IMG/VR virus record: IMGVR_UViG_3300007171_000004
Location: 32,001 to 96,000 of that record
DNA from: a virus
Taxonomy: Duplodnaviria > Caudoviricetes
DNA: 64,000 bases
Direction: 5' to 3' (one strand)
The translations under genes and the position numbers were made by a program. Below, piece after piece: positions 19,644 through 32,475 of this stretch. How positions within the stretch are numbered: position 1 is the first letter of the stretch; each line of letters opens with the position of its first letter. Under the pieces are notes generated by a model. It had not been told where the DNA came from. It saw only the letters and a program-made list of their open reading frames with translations, and searched no databases.

Positions 19644-20093
19644 TTATTCAGCGCTTCCTTGAATAATCTCTTGAGCCATATAAATAGCGAATCTTCCAAC
19701 ATAAGAAGCTTGATATTCTTGAGATTGAGATAGCCACCAAGCGTTAACTAAAGTTCCATCTTCTCCAAATGTAGCTAAAATATTTCCATGATCATCTTCA
19801 ATATTTCCCAAAATCTTCCAATCATTTGTTTCTGCAACCTTAATGATAGAAAATTCTTGAAAATTCATGCTGCCAGAATAATTACCTAAAAGATTCCTAG
19901 CAATTTCTACAGCATATTGTTGAACGATTGATAATTGAAATCCATCATCTTGTCTCATCCACCAAGGTCCGACGAGAGTTCCAGATTCGCCAAATGTTCC
20001 TAAAATTGTATTAGAATCGTCCTCAATATCGCCAAAAACTTTCCAATCATTCAATGTTTCATCATATTCAATATAATAATTTTGCAGATTCAT
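19644..20093 (-). CDS. 149 aa protein with two fused copies of the same 75 aa unit
   Basis: NDWKVFGDIEDD...TFGESGTLV..WW and NDWKILGNIEDD...TFGEDGTLV..WW. Confidence 0.8.
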   Translation of the reverse strand: MNLQNYYIEYDETLNDWKVFGDIEDDSNTILGTFGESGTLVGPWWMRQDDGFQLSIVQQYAVEIARNLLGNYSGSMNFQEFSIIKVAETNDWKILGNIEDDHGNILATFGEDGTLVNAWWLSQSQEYQASYVGRFAIYMAQEIIQGSAE

Positions 20094-20094
20094 A

Positions 20095-21420
20095 TTAAAA
20101 CTCCACTTTCAATTTTGCTACGTCTTTTCTCTCAGCAAAAACAGTGTAAAAACAGCTTATTTTTGACCACCAATAACTTTTTACAAATACTGTGTTGTTT
20201 TCTATTTTTTCGACCCTTAAACCATAAGAATTGCCTAAAGGTGTTAAATTTACAGTGATTGTATTTTCATCAACTAATCCTACCCAATAGTCTGGAAGAT
20301 AGATAATATTATCCTTTAAAATTCCCCTAACATATACACCATTTTCTGGACCTTCAAGAGAGCCATATCTTAGTTTCATGTCAGGCTTTGTGGGGTGATT
20401 AATTACAAAGCTTTTATTTGTTGCTGAAATTTCTCCATTAACTTCAAGATCATATGATGGAGAGGATGTACCAATTCCAATTCTATTATTTACTGTATCT
20501 ACTGTTAAAATATTTGTGCCAGCAGAATTTTGAAAAGATAGAGAATTTGTAGCATTAGTCGTGGGTTTAATTGCTAAAGTTGTTGAAGGAGCTAAAATTG
20601 TCGCAGAAGATAATATTGTAGAGCTTAACGTCCCAGTAGATGGATTGTAAGTAAGCTTAGTAGAAGAAACATTAAAAGTAGCAGCGCCAGATGTAACAGA
20701 TGTGAAAGAAATATACCGAGGAGAATTAGTTGTTGTATCATCTGTAACATTTAAAGTACTCGCTGAAGAAACTGCTGCTGTTAATACTACCCCTGAAACA
20801 TCTGCAGAACCATCTATCGTAAATGAACCAGTAACGTTGCCTCCAGAAAAAGTTACTGTTCTAGGAGTAGGCCAATATACATTTTTTCTACCAATATATC
20901 TGTATCCTGTAACTTTATATGGTGCTCTTGAAATTACAGTGCCAGAATCAGTGTTGGCATTCTTAAAAACTAAAATTCCAGTCTGATAATCAAAAAACCA
21001 ACTCGATGCATCTGCTTTTGGTACTAGAATATTATCTTTATCATATACCTTAATTTCATATCCAGTACCAGCGATAGTTCCAGGAGCATCATATTTATCA
21101 GGAATCCAATCTTTTAACCTAGATGATTCCGAAAGAGAAGATCCATTATTAGCAGTTACAGTGTCAGTAATGCTTGTTGCGAACCATGCTTGTTTATTAG
21201 GTACAGAAAGATCTTCGACTAACGTAAGAAGAGTATTGACCTGTACGATTGATGTTGAAGAACCTGGCGGAGTAGATGGAATATTATCAAGTTTAATATC
21301 TGTATAGTGAAGTTCAAGAGTAGATGCACCCTTTTCTTCATTAATACCTTTTCCAGTACTTGTGGTAATTCGTTTATTATTTAGCTTCTTAAAGCTTACA
21401 TCATTATCTGTCCAAGGCAT
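20095..21420 (-). CDS. Tail fibre-like protein with the KSF.I.HP...LEGPE C-terminal domain
   Basis: NNRIGIGTSSPSYDLEVNG; ATNKSFVINHP...GSLEGPENGVYVRG. Confidence 0.8.
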   Translation of the reverse strand: MPWTDNDVSFKKLNNKRITTSTGKGINEEKGASTLELHYTDIKLDNIPSTPPGSSTSIVQVNTLLTLVEDLSVPNKQAWFATSITDTVTANNGSSLSESSRLKDWIPDKYDAPGTIAGTGYEIKVYDKDNILVPKADASSWFFDYQTGILVFKNANTDSGTVISRAPYKVTGYRYIGRKNVYWPTPRTVTFSGGNVTGSFTIDGSADVSGVVLTAAVSSASTLNVTDDTTTNSPRYISFTSVTSGAATFNVSSTKLTYNPSTGTLSSTILSSATILAPSTTLAIKPTTNATNSLSFQNSAGTNILTVDTVNNRIGIGTSSPSYDLEVNGEISATNKSFVINHPTKPDMKLRYGSLEGPENGVYVRGILKDNIIYLPDYWVGLVDENTITVNLTPLGNSYGLRVEKIENNTVFVKSYWWSKISCFYTVFAERKDVAKLKVEF

Positions 21421-21421
21421 T

Positions 21422-23875
21422 TTAGCTGCTTACTATAGATGTGATTACTGGACTTGTGTTTTTAATAATAATCACTAATCTATACCTTCCTAAGTTTCCT
21501 GAAGTTGTTGGACCTGTTGTATATAAATTTCCTAAAGACCATCCCACTGCCCCACCAGAACCAGATGTTTTAGCGGATATAGCAGCTGCACGGGAAGATC
21601 CATCATTACTATTTGATCCCTGAGGTACGCCAAGATCAAACCATTTATTGTCAGCATCTAGATAAATTAATACATTTAAATTTCCAGTGCCATAAGGAGA
21701 AATATCTGTGTGAGCAATATTAGTAAATGTCAAAGTTCCAGTAGATGCAGATGTCTTATAGAAGAATCTTTGATATTCTTGATCTCCTGAAAAACCTGGA
21801 TATTCTGTTGCGTTAGGAAATTGTAAACAACCTGTATTAGCAGTTGAATGGTTTCTAACTTGAGCATTTCCATTAGCCAGAGTGTTAGTTGAAGTCCATG
21901 CAGTTGTGGTGTTTAATATTAATCTTTGAGCTTCATCTTGGAAATAATCCGCTGTGGTTGTAGATGTAGTTCCAAAAGTATTAATATAATAATTTAAATT
22001 TGCATTACCAGAAGTTGAAGCCCCAGAAGGTTTATTTAATGCAACAGTTAGATATTTATTTAATGAACTTCTTCCTGATACATTAATTGTGGCGATAGCA
22101 AAATTTCCACCAGATTTATCAAATGTGTCTGTATATACTGGAGTTGAGACAGGATTGACAGCAGTTTCATTCATTCCTGTTCCTGTGATTGCTGCTACTT
22201 TAGTCGGGTGGTAGCATCTGTTAAAAATACCAGAAGCTGCAATAAATCTAATTTGAAATGTAGATGTTGCTGTGTAATATGCTATACCAGATAAATATTT
22301 AAAGTTTACAGTGGCTTCAGTGGCTGTTGGAGATGTACTAAAAGATGGATTAGGGTTAGCTGCTGAATATGAATCGTAATAAGAATTAAAGATGTTAGTT
22401 TCACCAGCATCAGTATGTACGATTGAGTGACCTTCCCATCCATCAGTATTGTGCAAATAAGAAATAGTTGCATTAGCTTTTTTCCAGATACTGTTATAGG
22501 TAATGAAAGATGAAATTGTAAGAGAACCTGAAGTTAATGGAGTGCTTACAATACTGGACATTAGAATAGGATCAATACTAGTTCCAGAAGGCGCTAATGG
22601 TGTGTACTTCTTATGTGCAGTGGTTCCATATGTGGCTGTATCATTTGCTTTACCAGATTTATATGTCGTTGCTGTATTGGCTGTGGCTCCAGAAATAGTT
22701 CCAGATACAAAATACGTTGAGATTGTAGAACCCGCAGAAGCTCCACCATAATACCAATCAGGAATTCCAGAAGATACAATTGCGTTATAGAAAGTAACTC
22801 CAGAAGTAGATAAAGATGTTCCAGAAAGAGGATTGGCTTGAGCAGGAGCAATTGCATTTAAAAGCTCATTTACATCATCAAAAGCATCAGAAATCAAAGT
22901 AGAAGAAGTCCATGTACTAAAAAACCCATCTGTAAAAGTTCCATCAATAGTAGGAGTACCAAGAGTATTTGAACCTGTACCTGATACTGTACCCCAAGTA
23001 GGAACTCCAGATACAACCTTAAGCACTTCTCCTTCATTGCCAATTGCTCTTCTTGTCCATCCTCCAGCAGATCTATAAATTAGGTCTCCTGTAGCTTGAG
23101 AGGCAATTGTAAGTCCAGTAATATTAAATGTTTGTGAAGCTGAAAATGAAATAGCTTGTGTATGTGTATGAGCACCAGTCCAGTTAAAATTATATGCTTC
23201 ATCAACTGCTATCGTTCCAGCTGTTGTAATTGGATTAGGAGTAAGAGTAATTCCATTGCCAGGATTTAATGTTGTAGAACCGCCTCCTGCACCAATGACA
23301 GCCCAAGCAGATCCATTATAGTATTTTAGGATATTTGAAGCTGAATTATAATAAATTTGACCTGAAAAGCCTGTTAATGGGTCAGCAGTCTTATTTCCAA
23401 CTCTTAATACTGTAGTGCCAAGATCTAAATCACCAGTTATAGGGTCGTTTGAAGCATCTAATTTAAGATATCTTCCATCTCCTGTTGTTATATCTAATGC
23501 TCCAGATTGTGCTAAAGGCAACCATGCACCATCTGAATACACCTTTAATTGATTTAGGTTAGTATTGAAATATAGGGCTCCTTCTGCATTTTCTGTTGGA
23601 TCTGCAGTGGAAGCTAAGACTTTTAATCCATATTTACCAGCTGTGGGATAAAAATCTAAGTTGCCTAAAAATGAATCTCCAGCTTTCTTAACATAAAAAT
23701 CAGGAGTAATTGAAAGATTTAAGGTTTTGTTCGTGATACTAAGAGATAGGCCAGACAGAGTATTAGCGGAAACAAACAAATCGCCTTTAAGGCCATTTAA
23801 GCTTGTGACTACTTGATATGAGGTTGGGAGACTCCCTGGAATTAATCGAGGGGGAACAATATAAAAATCTGGCAT
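21422..23875 (-). CDS. Virion structural / fibre-base protein (817 aa)
   Basis: Repeated GALYFNT / GQIYYNS...LKVY..G.W motifs typical of phage fibre proteins; first gene of the minus-strand fibre operon. Confidence 0.65.
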   Translation of the reverse strand: MPDFYIVPPRLIPGSLPTSYQVVTSLNGLKGDLFVSANTLSGLSLSITNKTLNLSITPDFYVKKAGDSFLGNLDFYPTAGKYGLKVLASTADPTENAEGALYFNTNLNQLKVYSDGAWLPLAQSGALDITTGDGRYLKLDASNDPITGDLDLGTTVLRVGNKTADPLTGFSGQIYYNSASNILKYYNGSAWAVIGAGGGSTTLNPGNGITLTPNPITTAGTIAVDEAYNFNWTGAHTHTQAISFSASQTFNITGLTIASQATGDLIYRSAGGWTRRAIGNEGEVLKVVSGVPTWGTVSGTGSNTLGTPTIDGTFTDGFFSTWTSSTLISDAFDDVNELLNAIAPAQANPLSGTSLSTSGVTFYNAIVSSGIPDWYYGGASAGSTISTYFVSGTISGATANTATTYKSGKANDTATYGTTAHKKYTPLAPSGTSIDPILMSSIVSTPLTSGSLTISSFITYNSIWKKANATISYLHNTDGWEGHSIVHTDAGETNIFNSYYDSYSAANPNPSFSTSPTATEATVNFKYLSGIAYYTATSTFQIRFIAASGIFNRCYHPTKVAAITGTGMNETAVNPVSTPVYTDTFDKSGGNFAIATINVSGRSSLNKYLTVALNKPSGASTSGNANLNYYINTFGTTSTTTADYFQDEAQRLILNTTTAWTSTNTLANGNAQVRNHSTANTGCLQFPNATEYPGFSGDQEYQRFFYKTSASTGTLTFTNIAHTDISPYGTGNLNVLIYLDADNKWFDLGVPQGSNSNDGSSRAAAISAKTSGSGGAVGWSLGNLYTTGPTTSGNLGRYRLVIIIKNTSPVITSIVSS

Positions 23876-24068
23876 AAGTTATCTTTGTACCTTTTGTTTT
23901 TTGTACAATCTGCTTGTTTTTTTCTATTGGTTAAAGGGAAAATCCTATGAACCCAGAAAAAGGTATTTAAATTCCTCATTAAGAATAAAATTGAGGAAAA
24001 CAATAAAAAAATTTATTAAAGGTTTTCGATCCGTTTTTTTCTTCGAAGAGAAACAAGGAGTAAAATAT

Positions 24069-24890
24069 ATGCCAAATTATCCATCATCTTTCATCAATGG
24101 TGCTGCACCTGGTGTAAGAGCTGTAAATAACGTAACAGATGCGAGAGAATTGAAGTTCACACAGGCTCTTTCGGTAGCGTTCGTCGCTGCTGGAACTGTT
24201 GGAACCCCAGCTACAATCCATGCTGCTACAACCACAAACATCACATTGTCCAACTCCCAAACCGTTGACGGTGTTTCGCTTACCGCTGCAGGTAACAACA
24301 CTGTTCTCGTTAAGGACCAAACCAACCCAGCACAAAATGGTATCTATACCGTTGTAGACGCTGGTGCTTGGACAAGAGTTGCTGCATTTGATACCTCTGC
24401 TGAGTTCATCTCTGCTAATAACTTTAAACTTCCTGCTGTATCTAACGGTACTGTCAATGCAGGTAGAGTTTATGTTGTCAGAAATGTTGTTTCTGGTTTC
24501 ACACTTGGAACTGATCCACTCAGATTTGAGCTTCTTCCTGCAGTTAACGTATTCAATTCTGCTGCTAAGTACCCAACTGACTCGGTCGTTGGTACTGCAA
24601 CAAGAATCAATCCTTCCAACGTTTGGGAAGATTTTGTTAACATCGCTGGTCAACTTGATGCTGCACTCCTCGCATTTGAGGCTGAATATGCATCTACCCT
24701 TTCTGCTAACTCTGATGAATTAGCAGCAAACGCAGCTATCCTTTCTATTGAGAATCTCCAAAGAAAGTTCGAAATGAACCTCTTTGAACTTAACAGATTG
24801 ACTGCTGACTTGACCAGAATCAGAACTGCATCTGGTACTCTCCGTGGTGCTACATCCAGATACCCAAGTGGACAATACAGAGGCTATTAA
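24069..24890 (+). CDS. Probably abundant virion decoration / fibre protein (273 aa) with one VLVK.Q...QNGIY unit and a C-terminal helical region
   Basis: AAGGAG RBS 8 nt before ATG 24069, so the track start at 23901 is over-extended. Visibly more AAC/TTC/ATC codons than neighbours; own terminator; AATTTNITLS..QTVDGV...VLVKDQTNPAQNGIY...WTR. Confidence 0.75.
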   Translation: MPNYPSSFINGAAPGVRAVNNVTDARELKFTQALSVAFVAAGTVGTPATIHAATTTNITLSNSQTVDGVSLTAAGNNTVLVKDQTNPAQNGIYTVVDAGAWTRVAAFDTSAEFISANNFKLPAVSNGTVNAGRVYVVRNVVSGFTLGTDPLRFELLPAVNVFNSAAKYPTDSVVGTATRINPSNVWEDFVNIAGQLDAALLAFEAEYASTLSANSDELAANAAILSIENLQRKFEMNLFELNRLTADLTRIRTASGTLRGATSRYPSGQYRGY

Positions 24891-24911
24891 TCTTAATAGT
24901 TTCTATACTAA

Positions 24912-24946
24912 AAAAGAGGGAAGAAATTCTTCCCTCTTTTCTTTTT
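24912..24946. terminator. Bidirectional intrinsic terminator
   Basis: AAAAGAGGGAAGAA-A-TTCTTCCCTCTTTT near-perfect inverted repeat, flanked by A and T runs, between convergent genes. Confidence 0.85.
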
Positions 24947-25547
24947 ATCTCCAAATCGGCCCTTTTTTCAATTTAGCCTTTAAAGATGCTATTGATAATG
25001 TTTTCAATCTAGTCTGCACAAGCATTGTCTTAACTGAATATCTATTTTTAAGATAAGACCCATTATAAGATCTATACATATTCCTATAAGCTGTTCGACT
25101 AGGCAATCCACCTCTTGAATATTTCTTTAAATGAGCTGCTAACTCTAAACTTCCAATAGCAATATTTCCATAAATTGTATAGGGATTATATACTCTTTTT
25201 GGGTCATAATACCTAATTGATGATCTAACAAGTTGCATCATTCCAATACAAGGTCTGCTAGTCATTCTAAATTCACTTTCAACATATGCAGTAGAAGCTA
25301 TAACATACGGATCAAGTTTAAATTTCTTAGCTGATACAAATATAGCACCAGTAATAATATCTACTTTCGATTGAGAATATTTTGGCTGAACTGTTTTAAT
25401 AAACGCCTTAATTTTCTCTTTATCTTTATTTATTGAAGCTGATTGTGTAACTTTGGGTTTGTTCACAACTTCAATTTTTTTATTTGGTTGCATTGGGCCT
25501 TGAAGCAATGTCCAGAGCAATACAATCGGTGTTAGAATTAAATGCAT
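24945..25547 (-). CDS. Lytic transglycosylase (SLT domain) with N-terminal hydrophobic segment
   Basis: DPYVIASTAYVESEF (catalytic Glu), IGMMQL, NIAIG, YNG. Confidence 0.85.
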   Translation of the reverse strand: MHLILTPIVLLWTLLQGPMQPNKKIEVVNKPKVTQSASINKDKEKIKAFIKTVQPKYSQSKVDIITGAIFVSAKKFKLDPYVIASTAYVESEFRMTSRPCIGMMQLVRSSIRYYDPKRVYNPYTIYGNIAIGSLELAAHLKKYSRGGLPSRTAYRNMYRSYNGSYLKNRYSVKTMLVQTRLKTLSIASLKAKLKKGPIWR

Positions 25548-25590
25548 ATTAATTCTCCTTTCCTATGTTCTCTTAGCGAAGGAAGTCTTT

Positions 25591-25618
25591 TTGACAACCA
25601 CACAATAATCTATAGTAT
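25591..25618 (+). promoter_or_regulatory. Sigma70-type promoter for the PHD-finger gene
   Basis: Perfect TTGACA at 25591-25596, 16-bp spacer, TAGTAT at 25613-25618. Confidence 0.6.
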
Positions 25619-25645
25619 AACATTAACTATACAAATTGTAAAGCA

Positions 25646-25921
25646 ATGAATAACTATATCCCTGAAACTAACAAAAATATACCATGCTGTGTTTGCAATC
25701 AGCCTATTCTTCATCCAGTTGCCAAAAGTTCCTGTACTAAATGTGGAGCTTTAGCGCATCCTAATTGTAGAGGAATTCTTCTCGCATCTAATCAACCTTG
25801 GAGATGCCCTAAATGTACTGAAGAATTAACTGGCTTCATGAACAATATGCGGGTATCATCTGTTGTCGATAGTGATATAGACTACCTTTTTGAAAAGATA
25901 TATGACAATGGAAAAAAATAA
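25646..25921 (+). CDS. PHD-finger (C4HC3) protein
   Basis: C14-x2-C17-x12-C30-x2-C33-x4-H38-x2-C41-x10-W52-x-C54-x2-C57. Confidence 0.75.
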   Translation: MNNYIPETNKNIPCCVCNQPILHPVAKSSCTKCGALAHPNCRGILLASNQPWRCPKCTEELTGFMNNMRVSSVVDSDIDYLFEKIYDNGKK

Positions 25922-26144
25922 GAAGACTGCTCAAGTATTTAATTTAGCTGATAATCCTCCTGCAATTGTTCAACCTGCCCCTGAAAAAGCTGACATTAGT
26001 TCTATTACTGAAGATGTAGCTATGAGTGCAGTAGCTAATCTATTTTCAGAAGGCCGAATTGAAATGGATGATAATGGTGATTTGACATCTGAGTCTAAAC
26101 AAATTCTTATGAAATATGTTATGGGTATGATTAACGGAGCCTAG
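25902..26144 (+). CDS. Hypothetical protein with N-terminal KKTAQ motif
   Basis: ATG at 25902 or 25908 overlapping the PHD gene end; MEKNKKTAQVF. Confidence 0.6.
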   Translation: MTMEKNKKTAQVFNLADNPPAIVQPAPEKADISSITEDVAMSAVANLFSEGRIEMDDNGDLTSESKQILMKYVMGMINGA

Positions 26145-26367
26145 CTGTATATCGAGCTAGGTCGTTCAAACAACTTTCAGGAACTTTGTTTAGTCTACAT
26201 TTTGGGCAGTGAGTGGTATAATGTTGTATCCAATCTGCCCAAGTCACAGGATCAGTATTATTTTTTGATAGCCTGTTCATATTACTGGGGATTAAGAGTT
26301 CTTCAGAATTAATGAAGAATCTATCTAAACACTCATAACATATTGCTGAAGAAATACCTCTACTCAT
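26131..26367 (-). CDS. Small Zn-finger-like protein
   Basis: CYEC...HCPKC; last gene of the minus-strand operon. Confidence 0.6.
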   Translation of the reverse strand: MSRGISSAICYECLDRFFINSEELLIPSNMNRLSKNNTDPVTWADWIQHYTTHCPKCRLNKVPESCLNDLARYTARLR

Positions 26368-26735
26368 AATTCTTCTATGCTACCCAGTAAATCTATAAGT
26401 GCCAAGTTAAGTTCACTCTCATTTGAAAAGTGCTTAATTCGATTACCATAAAAAATTATATGGTTCTTAATTGGCCCTAAAACTTCTACATTTTTCACTA
26501 CTAAATATCTGTAGTTATATTGTTTCCTAATTTTGGAATAATGCTCAATATAATTAACTTTTGAGCCTGTTTTCTGTGTATACCAAACGTCAACATCTTC
26601 TTTTGGTTGATCTGACACTAAAACATTAATTGAATCATTAGACATAGCTTTAAAATCATCATATGTTTCAAATGACTTTAATATATCTTTAAGCTTCTTG
26701 GAATCTTTACAATCACCAATAATATTTATGTTCAT
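26364..26735 (-). CDS. Hypothetical alpha/beta protein, possibly a degenerate receiver-like fold
   Basis: MNINIIGD-helix-...-INVLVSD spacing recalls REC beta1 and beta3; resemblance is weak. Confidence 0.5.
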   Translation of the reverse strand: MNINIIGDCKDSKKLKDILKSFETYDDFKAMSNDSINVLVSDQPKEDVDVWYTQKTGSKVNYIEHYSKIRKQYNYRYLVVKNVEVLGPIKNHIIFYGNRIKHFSNESELNLALIDLLGSIEEL

Positions 26736-27349
26736 TTTCCAAAGTGAATCATGCCGACTGAAGACAAGATTTGATATAAAACAAATGCTCCACCAAATCC
26801 AGCTAAAATTAGATTAATCCTAAAGAAGAATTTATCTTGTGATTTGCTAATTTCATCCAACTTATTTTCTGTAGCTTCTCTGAAATTCTTAACATGCGTA
26901 GATTGTTCGCTCTTGAGATTAGCAATTTCCGATTTAATTGTGGTGGTTTCATTTCTAACGGATGAATTAACTTCGCCTAATTTTCTCATGAATTTATCTA
27001 TTTCAGAGTTTAGAGCTTGTGCATTGATTATAGCTTGTAAATCATTCTTAAATTCGTTAAGTTCTCCGCCAAAATTAGAGAGAACTGCATTGTATTCATC
27101 GAGTTCTTGCCCAATGCCATTTTTATTTTTAGTATATACATCGAGAAGAGTTGAAATTACTAAAACTTTTTCAAAAATGCTTCTAATCTCAGCCACTTCT
27201 AGGTTGGAATTATTTAGTAAATCTGTTTTAAGTTGATTTTGTAACTCTAGGATTTTAACTAAAGCATTATTAAATTCGACATAAGCTTCTGTTTGAGCTT
27301 CTAATTTATGTTTAAGCTCTTCTATACTTTTGTTGCTTTCTTGATCCAT
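26732..27349 (-). CDS. Long coiled-coil protein with C-terminal transmembrane anchor
   Basis: Heptad-rich body; FFFRINLILAGFGGAFVLYQILSSV hydrophobic tail. Confidence 0.75.
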   Translation of the reverse strand: MDQESNKSIEELKHKLEAQTEAYVEFNNALVKILELQNQLKTDLLNNSNLEVAEIRSIFEKVLVISTLLDVYTKNKNGIGQELDEYNAVLSNFGGELNEFKNDLQAIINAQALNSEIDKFMRKLGEVNSSVRNETTTIKSEIANLKSEQSTHVKNFREATENKLDEISKSQDKFFFRINLILAGFGGAFVLYQILSSVGMIHFGK

Positions 27350-27685
27350 TTAAACACTACTCAGAACTTTCTTTAGTCGTGATGTTGATTCTTTAAGTGC
27401 TGCGAGAGAATTTTCTTGTTCTTCTAATGAAACTACAAAACAATTAGTTCCATGATTGATATCTTTAGATTCTATTAAATATTTCTTTCCTGAAAAATTT
27501 ACAAACTTTAAGTGCTCACATTTAGTTGGATTAAATCTTGATAAAATATTGAAGCCTTTATTAGCATATTGTTTTGCTGCATCGTTCATCATGAGCAACT
27601 TACCACTAATATCAATAATCCACATAGGCTGACTAAAACTATCTAAGAAAGCTTCGAGTATATTTGTTTGTAATTGTTGACTCAT
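27350..27685 (-). CDS. Stand-alone PAS-domain protein
   Basis: ILEAFLDSFSQPMWIIDISGKLLMMNDAA matches the PAS N-terminal consensus; short C-terminal amphipathic helix. Confidence 0.7.
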   Translation of the reverse strand: MSQQLQTNILEAFLDSFSQPMWIIDISGKLLMMNDAAKQYANKGFNILSRFNPTKCEHLKFVNFSGKKYLIESKDINHGTNCFVVSLEEQENSLAALKESTSRLKKVLSSV

Positions 27686-27694
27686 TTTTTATCC

Positions 27695-28453
27695 CTAAGA
27701 AAGAAATATGCGATTATAATATTCTTGGAATGTCTTATATGATTCCTCGTCTTCCATTACAAAGTAGACATTTTTTAAACTTACAATGTCATTAGATTGT
27801 AAGAATGTTTTAACAGCAGACAATTGAACTCTAGCTGTATCGTAAATATCATGAGTGCCACAATCTGCTGGAATCATAACAATACTTTGAGCGCCATTTA
27901 AAGATGCATGTAAAAGAGCTTTTCTTGTACTAGATCTAATATCTTCCTCATTTACAAGTCTAGATTCTCCTGCTACAACTCCATGAATGATTTGTTTTGC
28001 CTTGACTAAAGAATTTTCACCGCCATTGGAAGTAATATAAATATCTCCCATCTTATAAGGCTTTTTCAACTTATCGCATTCTTCTTGGACTTTATTTTTA
28101 GAAAGATTATTTAAAAGTTGATCGTCAATTGTAAGAATAGAATTAGCTGGATAATAAATAAAATCAGACTTTACAGCATAAGGATTAGCATGCTTATGAA
28201 TGGATACTTTTGTGCCTGTAGTTTGTTTTGGTTCTACTTTTGGAGTTTCTTGCGCCTTAACTTCTGGCTTTTCTTCGATCTTTTCTTCGATCTTTTCTTT
28301 GAATGAACATGAATTTAAATCTCCATTACATTCATTTGACCAGTTTTCTTTAAGCATAGGTAATGACTTCTGCAATAAAGATGATGTAATAAATTCATTA
28401 GATGTTAATTTAACAAAACAAATTTTCTTATCTTGAATATATAAAGGACACAT
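27695..28453 (-). CDS. Macrodomain protein with degenerate ADP-ribose-binding loops
   Basis: VQEEC..L...GDIYIT..G...AKQIIHGV...RKAL..A...SIVMIP scaffold is conserved; NAAN, GGGV and GIFG-type loops read YPAN, IDDQ and CGTH. Confidence 0.8.
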   Translation of the reverse strand: MCPLYIQDKKICFVKLTSNEFITSSLLQKSLPMLKENWSNECNGDLNSCSFKEKIEEKIEEKPEVKAQETPKVEPKQTTGTKVSIHKHANPYAVKSDFIYYPANSILTIDDQLLNNLSKNKVQEECDKLKKPYKMGDIYITSNGGENSLVKAKQIIHGVVAGESRLVNEEDIRSSTRKALLHASLNGAQSIVMIPADCGTHDIYDTARVQLSAVKTFLQSNDIVSLKNVYFVMEDEESYKTFQEYYNRIFLS

Positions 28454-28490
28454 AAAAAAATCTCCCAAAACGATTAGCTTTAGGAGATTT
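28454..28490 (-). promoter_or_regulatory. Hairpin plus U7 tract whose 3' arm contains the Shine-Dalgarno of the macrodomain gene
   Basis: Minus strand AAATCTCCT-N15-GGGAGATTT-TTTT-ATG. Confidence 0.55.
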
Positions 28491-28509
28491 GTACAATTTA
28501 AGATCTTTT

Positions 28510-29094
28510 TTAAGGTATTTTAGCAAGTTCTGTAGAAATTTGACCCATTTGAGTTGGACTAATTCCTAAAGCTGGTAAAATTGTTGCAATGTTTGTACCT
28601 GAAGTTTTAATTAATGTAGCTAATTCATTGTAGAATTCTTGCATTTTTGTTGGATCACTAGACCTTACAGCTAAATCATATAAACTCTTAGCTTTTCTAA
28701 ATTCAGGAAAACCAGCTAATGTTCTTGTACCTTGCTCAAGAATTTTTCTATTTTGTTGATCGATTAAATTCTGTTGTTGGTCAGGAGTTAAAGTTGAGAC
28801 AGTTCTTGGATCTTGCATGGTATAGAAAAATTCGTCTGGAGTTTTAGGAGTATTGCCAGTAGGATCAATATAAGAACCTTGATAAGGATTCAGACCATAA
28901 TTACCTCTACCTGCTTGTCCACCTAGATATGTATTTAAAGATCCACCAATATTATTAGGATCCATAATATATCCACCAATACCATAATTTTGAGCAGTTT
29001 TAATTAATTGGCTGTCAATCTTATCAGCTGCATAGAATTGGCCTTTTTGATCTAATTGTTTAGCCTTTTTGATATTATTTGAGGGGGATTCCAT
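28510..29094 (-). CDS. Hypothetical (putative head-internal) protein with LD..G.F..AD.ID...KTAQ motif
   Basis: KKAKQLDQKGQFYAADKIDSQLIKTAQ followed by a Gly/Tyr-rich stretch. Confidence 0.75.
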   Translation of the reverse strand: MESPSNNIKKAKQLDQKGQFYAADKIDSQLIKTAQNYGIGGYIMDPNNIGGSLNTYLGGQAGRGNYGLNPYQGSYIDPTGNTPKTPDEFFYTMQDPRTVSTLTPDQQQNLIDQQNRKILEQGTRTLAGFPEFRKAKSLYDLAVRSSDPTKMQEFYNELATLIKTSGTNIATILPALGISPTQMGQISTELAKIP

Positions 29095-29839
29095 ATTTAC
29101 TAGCTGTCTCCTGTAATTTTTGGGTCAAGACTGATGCTTTTTGTTGATCTGTGTAATCTTTACTATTAATTGTGTTATAAATCATTTCCCAAATAGGCTT
29201 GAAATCTGGGACTTGAACTTCTGCTTGAGCAGTTTTGATATTATCTTCGGTTGCATCATTAAGTTTTTTAAGGCCTCCAGAATGTCCATAACCTGTATAC
29301 TTTGGGACATATTGAGACATAGGAATATCACCAAAATTAGGGCCTTTTGTTAATCCACCAAATGTAGGGGCTGTTCCTGTAAATGTAACATCAGCATTAC
29401 CACCATAAATTGGGTCGCCCTTCATTTTCTTTTGGATTTGTTTAGGAGTAGGAGTATTCATCTTTTGAGCAGCATTAACGGCAACCCCAGCTCTAGCAGC
29501 AAAATCTGCAATCCAGCCTATATTCTGCAAACCTTGAATTTTAGGCAAAAGTTTACCAATAAGATCAGGAATATGAGTGGCTTCATAGATTTTTTCTAAT
29601 TGAGAAACAACAGTCTTTTGCTTTTCTGTTAATGTATTTGGAATTTCAATTTTATTAATTTCAACTAATAATGCTTGCAAAACAGCTGGATCAAATTTAA
29701 ATAATTCTGTTTTTAAGGCTGTTGGATCTTTGATTTGTAATACTCTTTGAAGATCTGCTGCAGTTTGATTTTGAGCAATTTTCATTTCCAATTCATGCAA
29801 CATATTATCAATTTTAATTAATTCAGCTGTTTTATCCAT
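29075..29839 (-). CDS. Hypothetical protein with DKTAE / KIAQ / KTAQ motifs
   Basis: ORF overlapping both neighbours in the operon. Confidence 0.75.
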   Translation of the reverse strand: MDKTAELIKIDNMLHELEMKIAQNQTAADLQRVLQIKDPTALKTELFKFDPAVLQALLVEINKIEIPNTLTEKQKTVVSQLEKIYEATHIPDLIGKLLPKIQGLQNIGWIADFAARAGVAVNAAQKMNTPTPKQIQKKMKGDPIYGGNADVTFTGTAPTFGGLTKGPNFGDIPMSQYVPKYTGYGHSGGLKKLNDATEDNIKTAQAEVQVPDFKPIWEMIYNTINSKDYTDQQKASVLTQKLQETASKYGIPLK

Positions 29840-31110
29840 TATTTTTTGCCTCTAGCATTTTCATAAATTTCTTTGAGTCTTTTGTTTTTTTCCATTTTCC
29901 CGAGAGTATTTAATGTGTTATTTAAAATTTTGATTAATTGAGACTCGAGCTTGCAAAAGACACCATTAAGTTGAGAACCATCATATATAAAATATCTTGA
30001 TAGTTCTGTAAGCTTATAAAATTCTTTAAAAGGTACAACTTCTACTTCAGGTCTTTTATTTTTCATGGAATCGTTAATTTTATCTATTTCTTCATTTATA
30101 TCTTTAAGGATTTTTTCATATTCTTCATTGTCTTTACTAGTCAAAGTTCCAGCTGTAAATTTATCATCTCTTTGTTTGATAAACATATTTCTTTCGGTTT
30201 CAAGTTTATGTCTTTGTCTAATCAATAATTCTGGATTAGCTTTAACCTGAAGCAAAGGATATCTTAGAATATTAGTAATTTCTTTAGCACCATATTTCTG
30301 CAATTCTGGCATTTGAGCAATTTTTTCTAAGGAACTCATGATTGATTGAACATCTGCGGTATTCCAAACTACAACTTTATCCTTAACTGGCATTACAGCT
30401 GTAGGGTTACCAAAAGGGTCCGTGATAGTACCTCTATCACGCTTAAAATCACCCAATGGACTTCCTGTGGCAGATGCAGGATCATACACTTGAGTATTAG
30501 GATCTGTAGGACCCAATCTATCAGGAGGTGTTAAACCTACTAATCTCTGTAAAGGAGCTAAAGGACTCCTATTTCCTCTATATGTATCTTGAGAAATTGT
30601 AAATATTTTCTTCTTGAAGTAAATTTGAGCATATCCTGTCAAGTTAGTCAATAGATTTTGGATAAATACTTCTTCCTCAATAATACAACCGTCTTTTTTA
30701 GGTTTATCTGGATCTTCATCTTCTTCTGTCGGCTTATATAAATCTAATTCACCCCCTGGAGGTCTTACAATTAAATCGGAAGGACCTTCATTAGGATCTC
30801 TTCTTTCTAATTGATCTAGTGGTATCAAATCTTTATCTGTTGTGTTTGGCGTTGGTGTAGAAGGAGGTTTAGGAGTTGAATTAGGTTTAGGGCTTGGTGT
30901 AGGCGATGTTGGATTACTGCCAGATTGATCATTTGTAGTTTTAAATGCTTCCTGTAGAGCTTCACGGTCAGGATGCATTTCACCCATTGAACCCCATAAT
31001 TCACGAAATTTTAATCGTGGATTCGGTGCAGCTTGTAAAATGGTTAAAAATTCATTATATTTAGCCATATCAAGACTAATTCTAATAGATGCTGCTAATT
31101 TGTACCACAT
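29839..31110 (-). CDS. Hypothetical protein with MWYKLA N-terminus and Pro/Thr linker
   Basis: MWYKLAAS start; SNPTSPTPSPKPNSTPKPPSTPTP linker. Confidence 0.8.
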   Translation of the reverse strand: MWYKLAASIRISLDMAKYNEFLTILQAAPNPRLKFRELWGSMGEMHPDREALQEAFKTTNDQSGSNPTSPTPSPKPNSTPKPPSTPTPNTTDKDLIPLDQLERRDPNEGPSDLIVRPPGGELDLYKPTEEDEDPDKPKKDGCIIEEEVFIQNLLTNLTGYAQIYFKKKIFTISQDTYRGNRSPLAPLQRLVGLTPPDRLGPTDPNTQVYDPASATGSPLGDFKRDRGTITDPFGNPTAVMPVKDKVVVWNTADVQSIMSSLEKIAQMPELQKYGAKEITNILRYPLLQVKANPELLIRQRHKLETERNMFIKQRDDKFTAGTLTSKDNEEYEKILKDINEEIDKINDSMKNKRPEVEVVPFKEFYKLTELSRYFIYDGSQLNGVFCKLESQLIKILNNTLNTLGKMEKNKRLKEIYENARGKK

Positions 31111-31122
31111 AGATTTTCTTCC

Positions 31123-32475
31123 TTACCAATCAACTGTAGAATATTTCTCTGGATGGTCTGCACAATCCTTTGTAATAATAATCTTCTTTGGCTTGGCAGA
31201 ATGTGGTCCAATATGTTCAAAAGCTGCAAAACTTACAGATCTTTTCACCATATTATTTAAAGCTCTTGTACCTGTCCCCATGGCTTCAACTTTGCTTACA
31301 ATATCTTCAATGAACTCTTCGTCAAATTCTAATTCAATTCCATGTTCAGCAAAAAGAATCTGTTGTTTATTAATAGGAGAATTATCAAGGTCTAACAAAC
31401 ATTGAGTCAATTCTTCTTTTGTAAGTGGAGCAAGAATGACAACTGTTTGAATTCTTCCTACAAATTCAGCAGCCAAACCATAATCAATTAAAGATTCGTT
31501 TAAGATTTCGTGTGTAGCAAGACCAAGAATTTCATGAGGCTTTAAATCATTTTTTGACTTCTCATCATTCTTTGTGAAACCAATATTTTTGTTATGAATC
31601 TTAAGTTTTTCAGCTACAATATCAGATAATCCGTTAAATGCTCCTCCAAAACAAAATAGCATCCTAGCAGTGTCAACAAATGTAGCTGGACCACCCTGAT
31701 CACCTAAAATAGAGGATGGAATTTTAACTTTCTTACCTTCAATTAATTTAAGCATAGAGAACTGAGTATTGGTGTTTAAAGATTCAATTTTAGATTTACT
31801 AGAATTTCCAGCAAGTTTATCAATTTCATCAATAAAAACTATTCCTCTTTCAGCACTATCAATATCGCCTTGGGTTTTTAGAAACAGCTCATGAATAACA
31901 GAATCTGCATCTGCTCCTTGAAAACCTGTTGGAGAATAAGCTGTAGCATCTCCAATTACAAATGGCACTTCAAGATCATTGGCAATTGATGTGGTGATTA
32001 AAGTTTTACCAGAACCACTTGGGCCTAATAATAAGATATTATATTTATCATTATAGTTAGTTTGATATGTAGCTCTAATATGTTCGTATACAGTCAGGCT
32101 AATTCTCTTTTTAGCTTCATCTTGTCCAATTACTTTTTTATTTAAAGAATCATAAAAATATTTTGGACTTAAATGATTATAAGAACGTTTCCCTTTCATG
32201 GCATTATATTGTTGTCTTGCCATAGGAATAAGATCGAAAATGTTATTCTTAAGATCTTCGCCTGATTTTTCGTCGTGGATATTTAGGAGTACTGATAAGA
32301 GTTTGCCGTTAAGCTCCATCTGACCAAGAGTACTACCTACTTGAAAACAAGAATAATGATCATCGCAGAATTTAATGGCATCGCTCTCTTGAAATAGATT
32401 GAAATTATCTATAATAGTATGAGCTGCCTTCTTATTACAGAACGAACATCTATTCTGTACTGTTATTTCTCTCAT
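31123..32475 (-). CDS. clpX: ClpX-like AAA+ unfoldase
   Basis: N-terminal CSFC Zn domain, VIGQDEAKK, Walker A GPSGSGKT, Walker B IVFIDEIDK, LKLIEG, IGF loop (NIGF), PEFIGR-like AEFVGR. Confidence 0.9.
   Translation of the reverse strand: MREITVQNRCSFCNKKAAHTIIDNFNLFQESDAIKFCDDHYSCFQVGSTLGQMELNGKLLSVLLNIHDEKSGEDLKNNIFDLIPMARQQYNAMKGKRSYNHLSPKYFYDSLNKKVIGQDEAKKRISLTVYEHIRATYQTNYNDKYNILLLGPSGSGKTLITTSIANDLEVPFVIGDATAYSPTGFQGADADSVIHELFLKTQGDIDSAERGIVFIDEIDKLAGNSSKSKIESLNTNTQFSMLKLIEGKKVKIPSSILGDQGGPATFVDTARMLFCFGGAFNGLSDIVAEKLKIHNKNIGFTKNDEKSKNDLKPHEILGLATHEILNESLIDYGLAAEFVGRIQTVVILAPLTKEELTQCLLDLDNSPINKQQILFAEHGIELEFDEEFIEDIVSKVEAMGTGTRALNNMVKRSVSFAAFEHIGPHSAKPKKIIITKDCADHPEKYSTVDW

Follow-up and report, generated by a model that had tools for sequence, protein, structure and literature searches.

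PHD fingers are regarded as essentially eukaryotic chromatin-reading modules. In the methyl-lysine-binding subclass, represented by ING, BPTF and TAF3, the aromatic cage consists of a Tyr before ligand 1 and a Trp two residues before the ligand His. Canonical RING fingers (C3HC4 or C3H2C3) carry a His at ligand 4, and in RING-H2 also at ligand 5, with a second knuckle of the form C-x-H or C-x2-H. Among the proteins that are targeted to a capsid are the internal proteins IPI-III and Alt of phage T4, and the T4 address tag is N-terminal. Scaffolding proteins with C-terminal capsid-binding tails include gp8 of P22 and the herpesvirus protein pre-VP22a, the latter with a maturational cleavage site. 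To our knowledge, zinc fingers are not known as cargo of T4-type capsid-targeting or scaffold systems. Hydrophobic-acidic C-terminal tails also occur on T4 gp43, gp33 and gp55, where they bind gp45.

The gene described here encodes a stand-alone protein of 91 amino acids (P0001) in a tailed phage; in the literature searched, no PHD finger was described for a bacteriophage. P0001 resembles the PHD fingers of ING3, JADE1, TAF3 and BPTF in its C4HC3 order, its canonical spacing and the Trp before ligand 7. It differs from them in scoring under the Pfam cut-offs, in having neither an aromatic cage nor an acidic peptide-binding surface, in being phage-encoded with a candidate docking tail, and in that the signature varies among its homologues. 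With the C4HC3 finger of NSE1 (NSMCE1) and with prokaryotic RING fingers (Pfam Prok-RING_1; Burroughs, Iyer and Aravind 2011, cited in PMC4506424) it has in common the layout C-x2-C...C-x2-C-x4-H-x2-C...C-x2-C and a predicted cross-brace treble clef. NSE1 lacks the Trp, unlike P0001, and Prok-RING_1 domains are tied to ubiquitin-like systems or membranes, neither of which is present at the P0001 locus, where the corresponding HMM scores lie far under threshold.

Like the T4 internal proteins and the P22 and herpesvirus scaffolding proteins, the finger protein is a small basic product with a candidate protease motif before the terminal segment. Further likenesses to capsid-targeted systems are a tail shared with an acidic head-module protein and a partner with a short K-T-A-Q leader. 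In contrast to T4, the conserved candidate docking element of the finger family is C-terminal and not N-terminal. New here are the phage family, the plasticity of its ligands and its tail, in a fold of a known class.

The finger gene and its resemblance to PHD fingers

The stretch analysed, referred to as the window, comprises 64,000 nucleotides (bases 32001-96000) of a 300,536-bp IMG/VR record that is linear and 84% complete. Tail-fibre, virion-structural, PhoH and topoisomerase II genes are located within the window, and genes for the portal, the major head protein, a DnaN-like clamp and a clamp loader lie outside it in the same genome. The source is an uncultured jumbo tailed phage and not a eukaryotic virus. 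Near-identical DNA was found in estuary, reservoir, aquatic and sediment metagenomes, the rows holding the whole or part of the stretch coming from 13 studies. Metatranscriptome contigs held only fragments (25447-25677 in X16 and 25820-25978 in X18), which cannot give strand, start or timing of transcription and may represent DNA carry-over. The features of the locus are collected in Table 1.

Table 1. Features of the finger locus and the related head-module gene. Positions refer to the window unless another record is named.
Feature	Position	Strand	Basis
Gene of the 91-aa zinc-finger protein (P0001)	25646..25921	+	ORF translation, pN/pS, 58-member cluster, synteny
C4HC3 finger, C14 to C57, predicted binuclear	25685..25816	+	Residue spacing; Pfam; hhalign; sister-clade ligands
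R69-V-S-S72, candidate head-protease site	25850..25861	+	Family motif x-[TVIN]-[AS]-S
C-terminal amphipathic tail D77-I-D-Y-L-F-E-K-I-Y86 (candidate docking motif)	25874..25903	+	Family conservation, predicted helix
Promoter-like site TTGACA, 16 nt, TAGTAT	25591..25618	+	10/12 consensus match
80-aa acidic protein, starting M-T-M-E-K-N-K-K-T-A-Q; partner of the finger	25902..26144	+	20-nt overlap, synteny, fusion
SLT-type transglycosylase with hydrophobic N-terminus, divergent neighbour	24945..25547	-	Pfam SLT at cut-off 21.3 bits; PHROG transglycosylase
78-aa CxxC...HCxxC protein, convergent neighbour	26131..26367	-	Beside the finger/partner pair in every relative examined
302-aa strongly acidic head-module protein	G000 199586-200494 = L029 3587-4495	-	Tail match

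The first-pass annotation of the window had reported a C4HC3 finger with a Trp two residues before the last Cys pair, and both the spacing and the Trp were confirmed exactly. Residues 14-57 read C14-x2-C17-x12-C30-x2-C33-x4-H38-x2-C41-x10-W52-x-C54-x2-C57, with C15 as an additional Cys, and fall within the PHD spacing C-x2-C-x(9-21)-C-x(2-4)-C-x(4-5)-H-x2-C-x(12-46)-C-x2-C. As in PHD fingers, the H-x2-C is followed by x-G-[IL] after the second knuckle. The arrangement is not that of a canonical RING, ligand 4 being C33 and ligand 5 H38. Applied to all six reading frames of the 300,536-bp genome, the PHD regular expression gave a single match, against none in 60 shuffled genomes, and we therefore concluded that the motif is not due to chance. 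At 90% identity, P0001 belongs to a cluster of 58 members from JGI, ENA and Logan assemblies, and the gene order around it is kept on many metagenome contigs. The pN/pS ratio of the gene was approximately 0.15 (window against the six loci L002-L007), and the eight ligands, W52 and the C-terminal D-I-D-Y-L-F-E-K-I-Y were invariant among 15 aligned clade members. The finger gene is real, conserved and under purifying selection. N-terminally over-extended versions of 124 aa (P0014-P0016, P0002 cluster) carry the name 'ribosomal protein L37AE/L43A' in JGI records, a mis-annotation due to the resemblance of the Cys pattern to a zinc ribbon.

Among 24,736 Pfam families the best two for P0001 were PHD (PF00628; E 0.0012, 19.2 bits against a cut-off of 24, full model 1-47/47) and PHD_2 (PF13831; 17.5 bits against a cut-off of 28). 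Within the window clade, PHD_2 matched all 15 members and PHD eight of them (best E 0.00041), and none of the 15 members scored reached the Pfam PHD gathering cut-off. The comparison with PHD HMMs proposed in the first-pass annotation was thus favourable in rank, PHD and PHD_2 being the top two families, but not in score, since both stayed under the Pfam threshold. Apart from Prok-RING_1 (PF14446; E 0.89, 10 bits against a cut-off of 29.1), no RING family appeared in the Pfam list at E <= 10. When 1.84 billion representative proteins were searched exhaustively with phmmer, the only hits beyond the cluster of P0001 itself were two PHD proteins (E 1.6e-4 and 5.5e-4). The closer of the two, P0004, has a JADE/BRPF-like PHD_2 finger of eukaryotic type and is 41% identical over 51 residues (35% over 71 residues in the BLASTP alignment). 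Comparison of the P0001 clade with 32 eukaryotic PHD fingers by hhalign gave a probability of 92.7% (E 4.3e-7). Most of the phmmer and hhalign score comes from the eight ligands and the Trp, so that these values repeat, for the most part, what the spacing shows.

Structure prediction with AF2 on the clade's own shallow alignment was poor (pLDDT 47.8); when PHD fingers were added to the alignment, pLDDT rose to 61, with 63-78 in the finger. The nearest solved chains to the PHD-aided model were almost all PHD fingers, both by Foldseek and in an independent search against all of 48,161 chains, a result that is partly circular because the alignment was dominated by ING-type PHD fingers. The model matched PHD structures with an rmsd of 2.0-3.3 A over 50-56 residues, Z up to 4.6 and TM by target of about 0.6, modest Z and TM values being expected for a domain of 50 residues. 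The best PDB match of the clade profile was the RING-like domain of NSE1 (E 0.003), and the matches of the family-wide profile were mixed, comprising NSE1 RING-like, RNF125, BRCA1, Slp4, TAF3 and ribosomal zinc ribbons. Nearest neighbours in a protein language model were small bacterial proteins, some of them Prok-RING_1, with PHD also present in some of those clusters; the scores were 0.84-0.91, and the shared-feature counts of 140-149 were under the level typical of true family members. The best AlphaFold-cluster match was an unnamed 62-aa protein (33% identity, prob 0.93). No meaningful match was obtained in the BFVD viral structure library, and PHROGs has no family for either the finger protein or its partner. 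Because of the mixed PDB matches and the bacterial neighbours of Prok-RING_1 type, P0001 was classed as a PHD-like finger with a binuclear treble clef, belonging to a family native to phages, and not as a member of the PHD family.

The suggestion that the finger reads methylated lysines or histone-like tails found no support. In the HMMER alignment to ING3, the aromatic-cage positions are occupied by C14 and L36 of P0001, and residues 8-58 contain six Lys/Arg and not a single Asp or Glu. Based on these residues, a reader of methyl-lysine or of a basic tail appears unlikely.

Relatives and their ligand states

Relatives of the locus were located via the divergent transglycosylase gene, which served as a synteny anchor; its orthologues were found in L009-L012, L019 and L020. 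The loci L017 and L018 were rejected as not orthologous, the gene there being a paralogous transglycosylase elsewhere in the genome. On these two IMG/VR contigs (94,455 and 261,424 bp) it is a second SLT-type transglycosylase, 46-47% identical.

At the same position, L009-L012 encode proteins of 92-104 aa with one CxxC...CxxC pair, followed by the same small gene and by a convergent gene for a 76-78-aa CxxC protein. This single-site (C4) clade keeps ligands 3, 4, 7 and 8, which align to C30, C33, C54 and C57 of P0001, and is without ligands 1, 2, 5 and 6. Its proteins end in Y-I-D-N-L-F-A-E-I-F-K or a similar tail. A profile search found 37 clusters of C4-clade proteins at E <= 0.01, one of them with 319 members; the clade comprises hundreds of sequences. 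The window clade and the C4 clade were aligned by hhalign with an E of 4.9e-5 over residues 28-89; profile comparison of the single-site clade with PHD fingers gave no signal.

In two further homologues, from L019 and L020, the eight ligands include a Cys in the fifth and a His in the eighth position. A full-length BLASTP match to P0001 (3e-15) was obtained for the L020 protein, which reads C-x2-C-x11-C-x4-C-x4-C-x2-C-x8-W-x-C-x2-H, the Trp two residues before ligand 7 being present here too. The L019 protein (BLASTP 8e-11) reads C-x2-C-x9-C-x2-C-x4-C-x3-C-...-C-x2-H and retains a long loop, W...[IV]-G-K-x-[VL]-C, that is also seen in the single-site clade. Neither of the corresponding proteins, P0122 and P0123, had a PHD hit at E <= 1. 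The PHD signature is not conserved among the homologues of P0001, given the variant ligands of L019 and L020 and the one site of the C4 clade.

Since the sister clade keeps only the ligands aligned to C30, C33, C54 and C57, we propose these four residues as site II and C14, C17, H38 and C41 as site I. The lost ligands thus make up one interleaved site and the kept ligands the other, which provides evidence for a cross-brace that is independent of HMMs and AlphaFold. Two sequential ribbons would leave two broken halves. Two independent zinc ribbons were the fold by which the first-pass annotation would have seen its PHD assignment overturned; a sister clade with only ligands 3, 4, 7 and 8 appears to favour the cross-brace instead. 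From this pattern we infer that P0001 probably binds two zinc ions in a cross-brace.

In a tree of the neighbouring SLT gene, the window clade formed a clade with L009, L010 and L012 (support 100/100), with L019 and L020 outside; within this clade the window phages nest weakly among the C4 phages. The tree was midpoint-rooted only, L020 was flagged as a long branch, and the fork joining the outer lineages was unsupported. The simplest history would be an eight-ligand ancestor with Cys-5 and His-8, from which site I was lost in the C4 clade and the window clade switched to His-5 and Cys-8. The polarity of this scheme, with site I lost and not gained, rests on two single outgroup lineages and the midpoint-rooted tree of the neighbour gene.

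The distribution of the family was determined by several searches. Megablast with window positions 20000-32000 detected no related DNA among 50,697 deposited phage genomes, and tblastn with P0001, a C4-clade member and the SLT neighbour detected no homologues in the same genomes. A pattern scan with the C4-clade profile found no homologue in 185,579 prokaryotic species genomes, one per species. A pattern scan of IMG/VR yielded nothing new with P0001 alone and only L020's own contig with the binuclear alignment, and a metagenome scan added only copies of the window clade and of L020. As far as sampled, the family appears to be confined to uncultured aquatic jumbo tailed phages.

A 'textbook' PHD finger acquired from eukaryotes, one of two origins first offered, finds no support in such a phage-only family, whose deeper members have Cys-5 and His-8 without a PHD hit, or a single site; the other origin, by which the protein would be a prokaryotic relative of the fold, comes closer. 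Because the ligand sets vary among relatives, we regard the PHD look of P0001 as one state of a fast-evolving phage finger and not as a recent import of a chromatin reader. A PHD-patterned finger in a tailed phage means that the signature can arise or persist outside chromatin biology, and its occurrence within a variable family makes the spacing alone a weak guide to function. The family further represents a natural experiment on how a cross-brace fold gains or loses one of its metal sites.

Neighbouring genes and the upstream region

The genes flanking the finger gene encode tail-fibre and virion-structural proteins and the transglycosylase. The finger gene overlaps the gene of the 80-aa acidic protein by 20 nt, and the latter gene is present at this place in all relatives, whose versions of the protein begin with M-N-x-S-K-L-A-Q (K-L-A-Q leader). 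In L020 (2233-2709, minus strand) and in a second assembly, L022 (1501-1977, plus strand), finger and partner are fused in frame via I-F-R-T-A-Q. A gene for a 123-aa protein (26364-26735, minus strand) occurs in the window clade and L020 and is absent from L009-L012 and L019; by this distribution, the cassette content is mosaic and does not follow the neighbour-gene tree. Between a virion-protein gene (24069-24890, plus strand) and the transglycosylase gene, a hairpin with a 13-bp stem followed by a T-run (24912-24940) is likely to act as a two-way terminator, judging from its sequence.

Upstream of the finger gene a consensus sigma70 promoter had been annotated, of which the -35 element stood. 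TTGACA at 25591-25596 is a perfect -35 hexamer, but TAGTAT at 16-nt spacing is a 4/6 match to the -10 (10/12 in total), no exact TTGACA-N16-18-TATAAT occurs within the window, and promoter-like sites are not enriched in the region (9 versus 8.2 +/- 2.7 in shuffles). The block kept across relatives is TATAGT at 25611-25616. Its distance from TTGACA is 14 nt in the window and 9 nt in 92%-identical relatives, owing to a 5-bp indel (TAATC) in the spacer that alters the promoter geometry (window 25597-25610 versus L003, L002 and L007, which are otherwise nearly identical). In L009, which is more distant, the elements are TTGAAA-16-TATAGT. Of the 33 TTGACA-N16-18-TANNNT sites in the genome, five, including the one upstream of the finger gene, fall between genes, although non-coding DNA makes up only 5.8% of the sequence; it is therefore plausible that this phage has host-type promoters. 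Inspection by eye of the region upstream of the finger gene showed no SigH-type late promoter AGG-N19-GAA. Early expression of the finger from a consensus promoter, as first proposed, is not supported, the spacing being variable and the gene lying among virion genes.

The C-terminal tail and alternative explanations

Within the family, conservation is highest in the tail and not in the finger. The family consensus of the tail is [IV]-D-x-L-F-x-x-[IL]-[FY], with D79, L81, F82 and I85 invariant across the family, and a helix is predicted at residues 75-87/90. Five to nine residues before the tail, the family has the motif x-[TVIN]-[AS]-S. In relatives it takes the forms KTAS, KIAS, RVAS, RTAS, KVAS, VTAS, VNAS and TTAS; the window clade and L020 have RVSS or RTSS, and the candidate cleavage site of the window clade accordingly has Ser and not Ala at P1.

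The only other ORF of the genome with the finger-family tail encodes the 302-aa protein, which ends in W-I-D-E-L-F-T-K-K-Y-D. Its gene is located approximately 4 kb from the portal gene, among genes for proteins with K-I-A-Q-type leaders. The orthologues in G001 and G004 keep W-I-D-A-L-F-T-K-K-Y-D, the remainder of the protein being about 50% identical, and the 302-aa protein and its orthologues have K-[VT]-A-T about 36 residues before the tail (K-V-A-T in G000). The tails of the finger protein and the 302-aa protein match at 7 of 10 positions, for which the chance is on the order of 1e-3 by a rough, post hoc estimate. No family was found for the 302-aa protein in PHROGs or Pfam; in appearance it is scaffold-like. 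The prohead-protease families PF03420 and PF04586 had no match in the genome, a result that says little for PF03420, which was run without a positive control.

Taken together, the shared tail, the x-[TVIN]-[AS]-S motif, the K-T-A-Q partner and the overlap or fusion of the two genes suggest that finger and partner are head-associated and possibly trimmed. The reading we favour, to which we give somewhat less than an even chance, is that of a phage-native, PHD-like cross-brace finger which is loaded into the capsid or works there. The protein is composed of four parts, namely a short N-terminal M-x-N-Y-x-P motif, the basic zinc module, a linker with x-[TVI]-[AS]-S and the acidic amphipathic C-terminal helix. 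This helix would dock the finger protein on a head-assembly partner that is also bound by the tail of the 302-aa protein. The finger protein may act together with the overlapping or fused small acidic protein of the K-T-A-Q leader, and the two may enter the procapsid, where the head protease would trim them. The basic finger may bind an acidic protein surface or nucleic acid and not a basic histone-like tail. We infer docking, packaging and cleavage; the idea of capsid docking rests on the 7/10 match of the two tails, on motif logic and on gene position. The constant tail, common to a head-module protein, offers a concrete starting point for testing how jumbo phages may direct accessory proteins to the capsid.

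In another reading, P0001 may be a true two-zinc PHD-type finger, evolved or anciently kept, that is loaded into the procapsid through mimicry of a scaffold-like tail, freed by the head protease and brought into the host with the DNA as a pre-made effector. We consider this unlikely; if true, the sister phages would constitute a natural series for the gain and loss of the metal site. The exact C4HC3 and Trp signature, the eukaryote-type P0004 as best outside match, the hhalign probability and the perfect -35 hexamer would also fit a genuine PHD finger of eukaryotic origin that a host-type promoter drives early in infection and that recognises the N-terminal tail of a host protein or one of its methylated lysines. 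We regard such a capture as quite improbable. Full-length homologues at the same locus in deeper phages have other ligand states and no PHD hit, the cage positions are Cys and Leu in a basic finger without acidic residues, the promoter spacing is not conserved in a gene among virion genes, and the best hit out of 1.84e9 proteins is about what the ligand pattern alone yields.

A generic protein- or nucleic-acid-binding regulator acting in the cell and not associated with the virion would be expected if the finger were a prokaryotic RING-like finger (Prok-RING_1 and similar) or an offshoot thereof. The language-model neighbours, the 62-aa AlphaFold-cluster match and the mixed NSE1, RNF125, BRCA1, Slp4 and TAF3 fingers hit by the family-wide profile point in this direction, but the Prok-RING_1 HMM scored far under its cut-off, the shared-feature counts stayed under the true-member level, and the pattern scan of the prokaryotic species genomes found no homologue, which leaves this reading doubtful. 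Since the phage has a DnaN-like clamp, it was also considered that [IV]-D-x-L-F is a sliding-clamp-binding peptide by which the finger protein rides that clamp. The genome does encode a 372-aa DNA polymerase processivity factor and a clamp loader, and the finger protein ends in a short tail, acidic and hydrophobic, whose core is L-F. However, the same tail is found on an acidic head-module protein near leader-tagged proteins and the portal, the bacterial consensus Q-L-[SD]-L-F is not fitted, with Asp where Leu is expected, and no replication protein of the genome ends with the tail; clamp binding is highly unlikely on these grounds.

A generic regular expression found a second eight-ligand, cross-brace-like pattern, C-x-C-C...C-x2-C...C-x2-C...C-x2-C, in a 551-aa ORF (G000 187409-189064, minus strand) that lies between the portal and major head genes.
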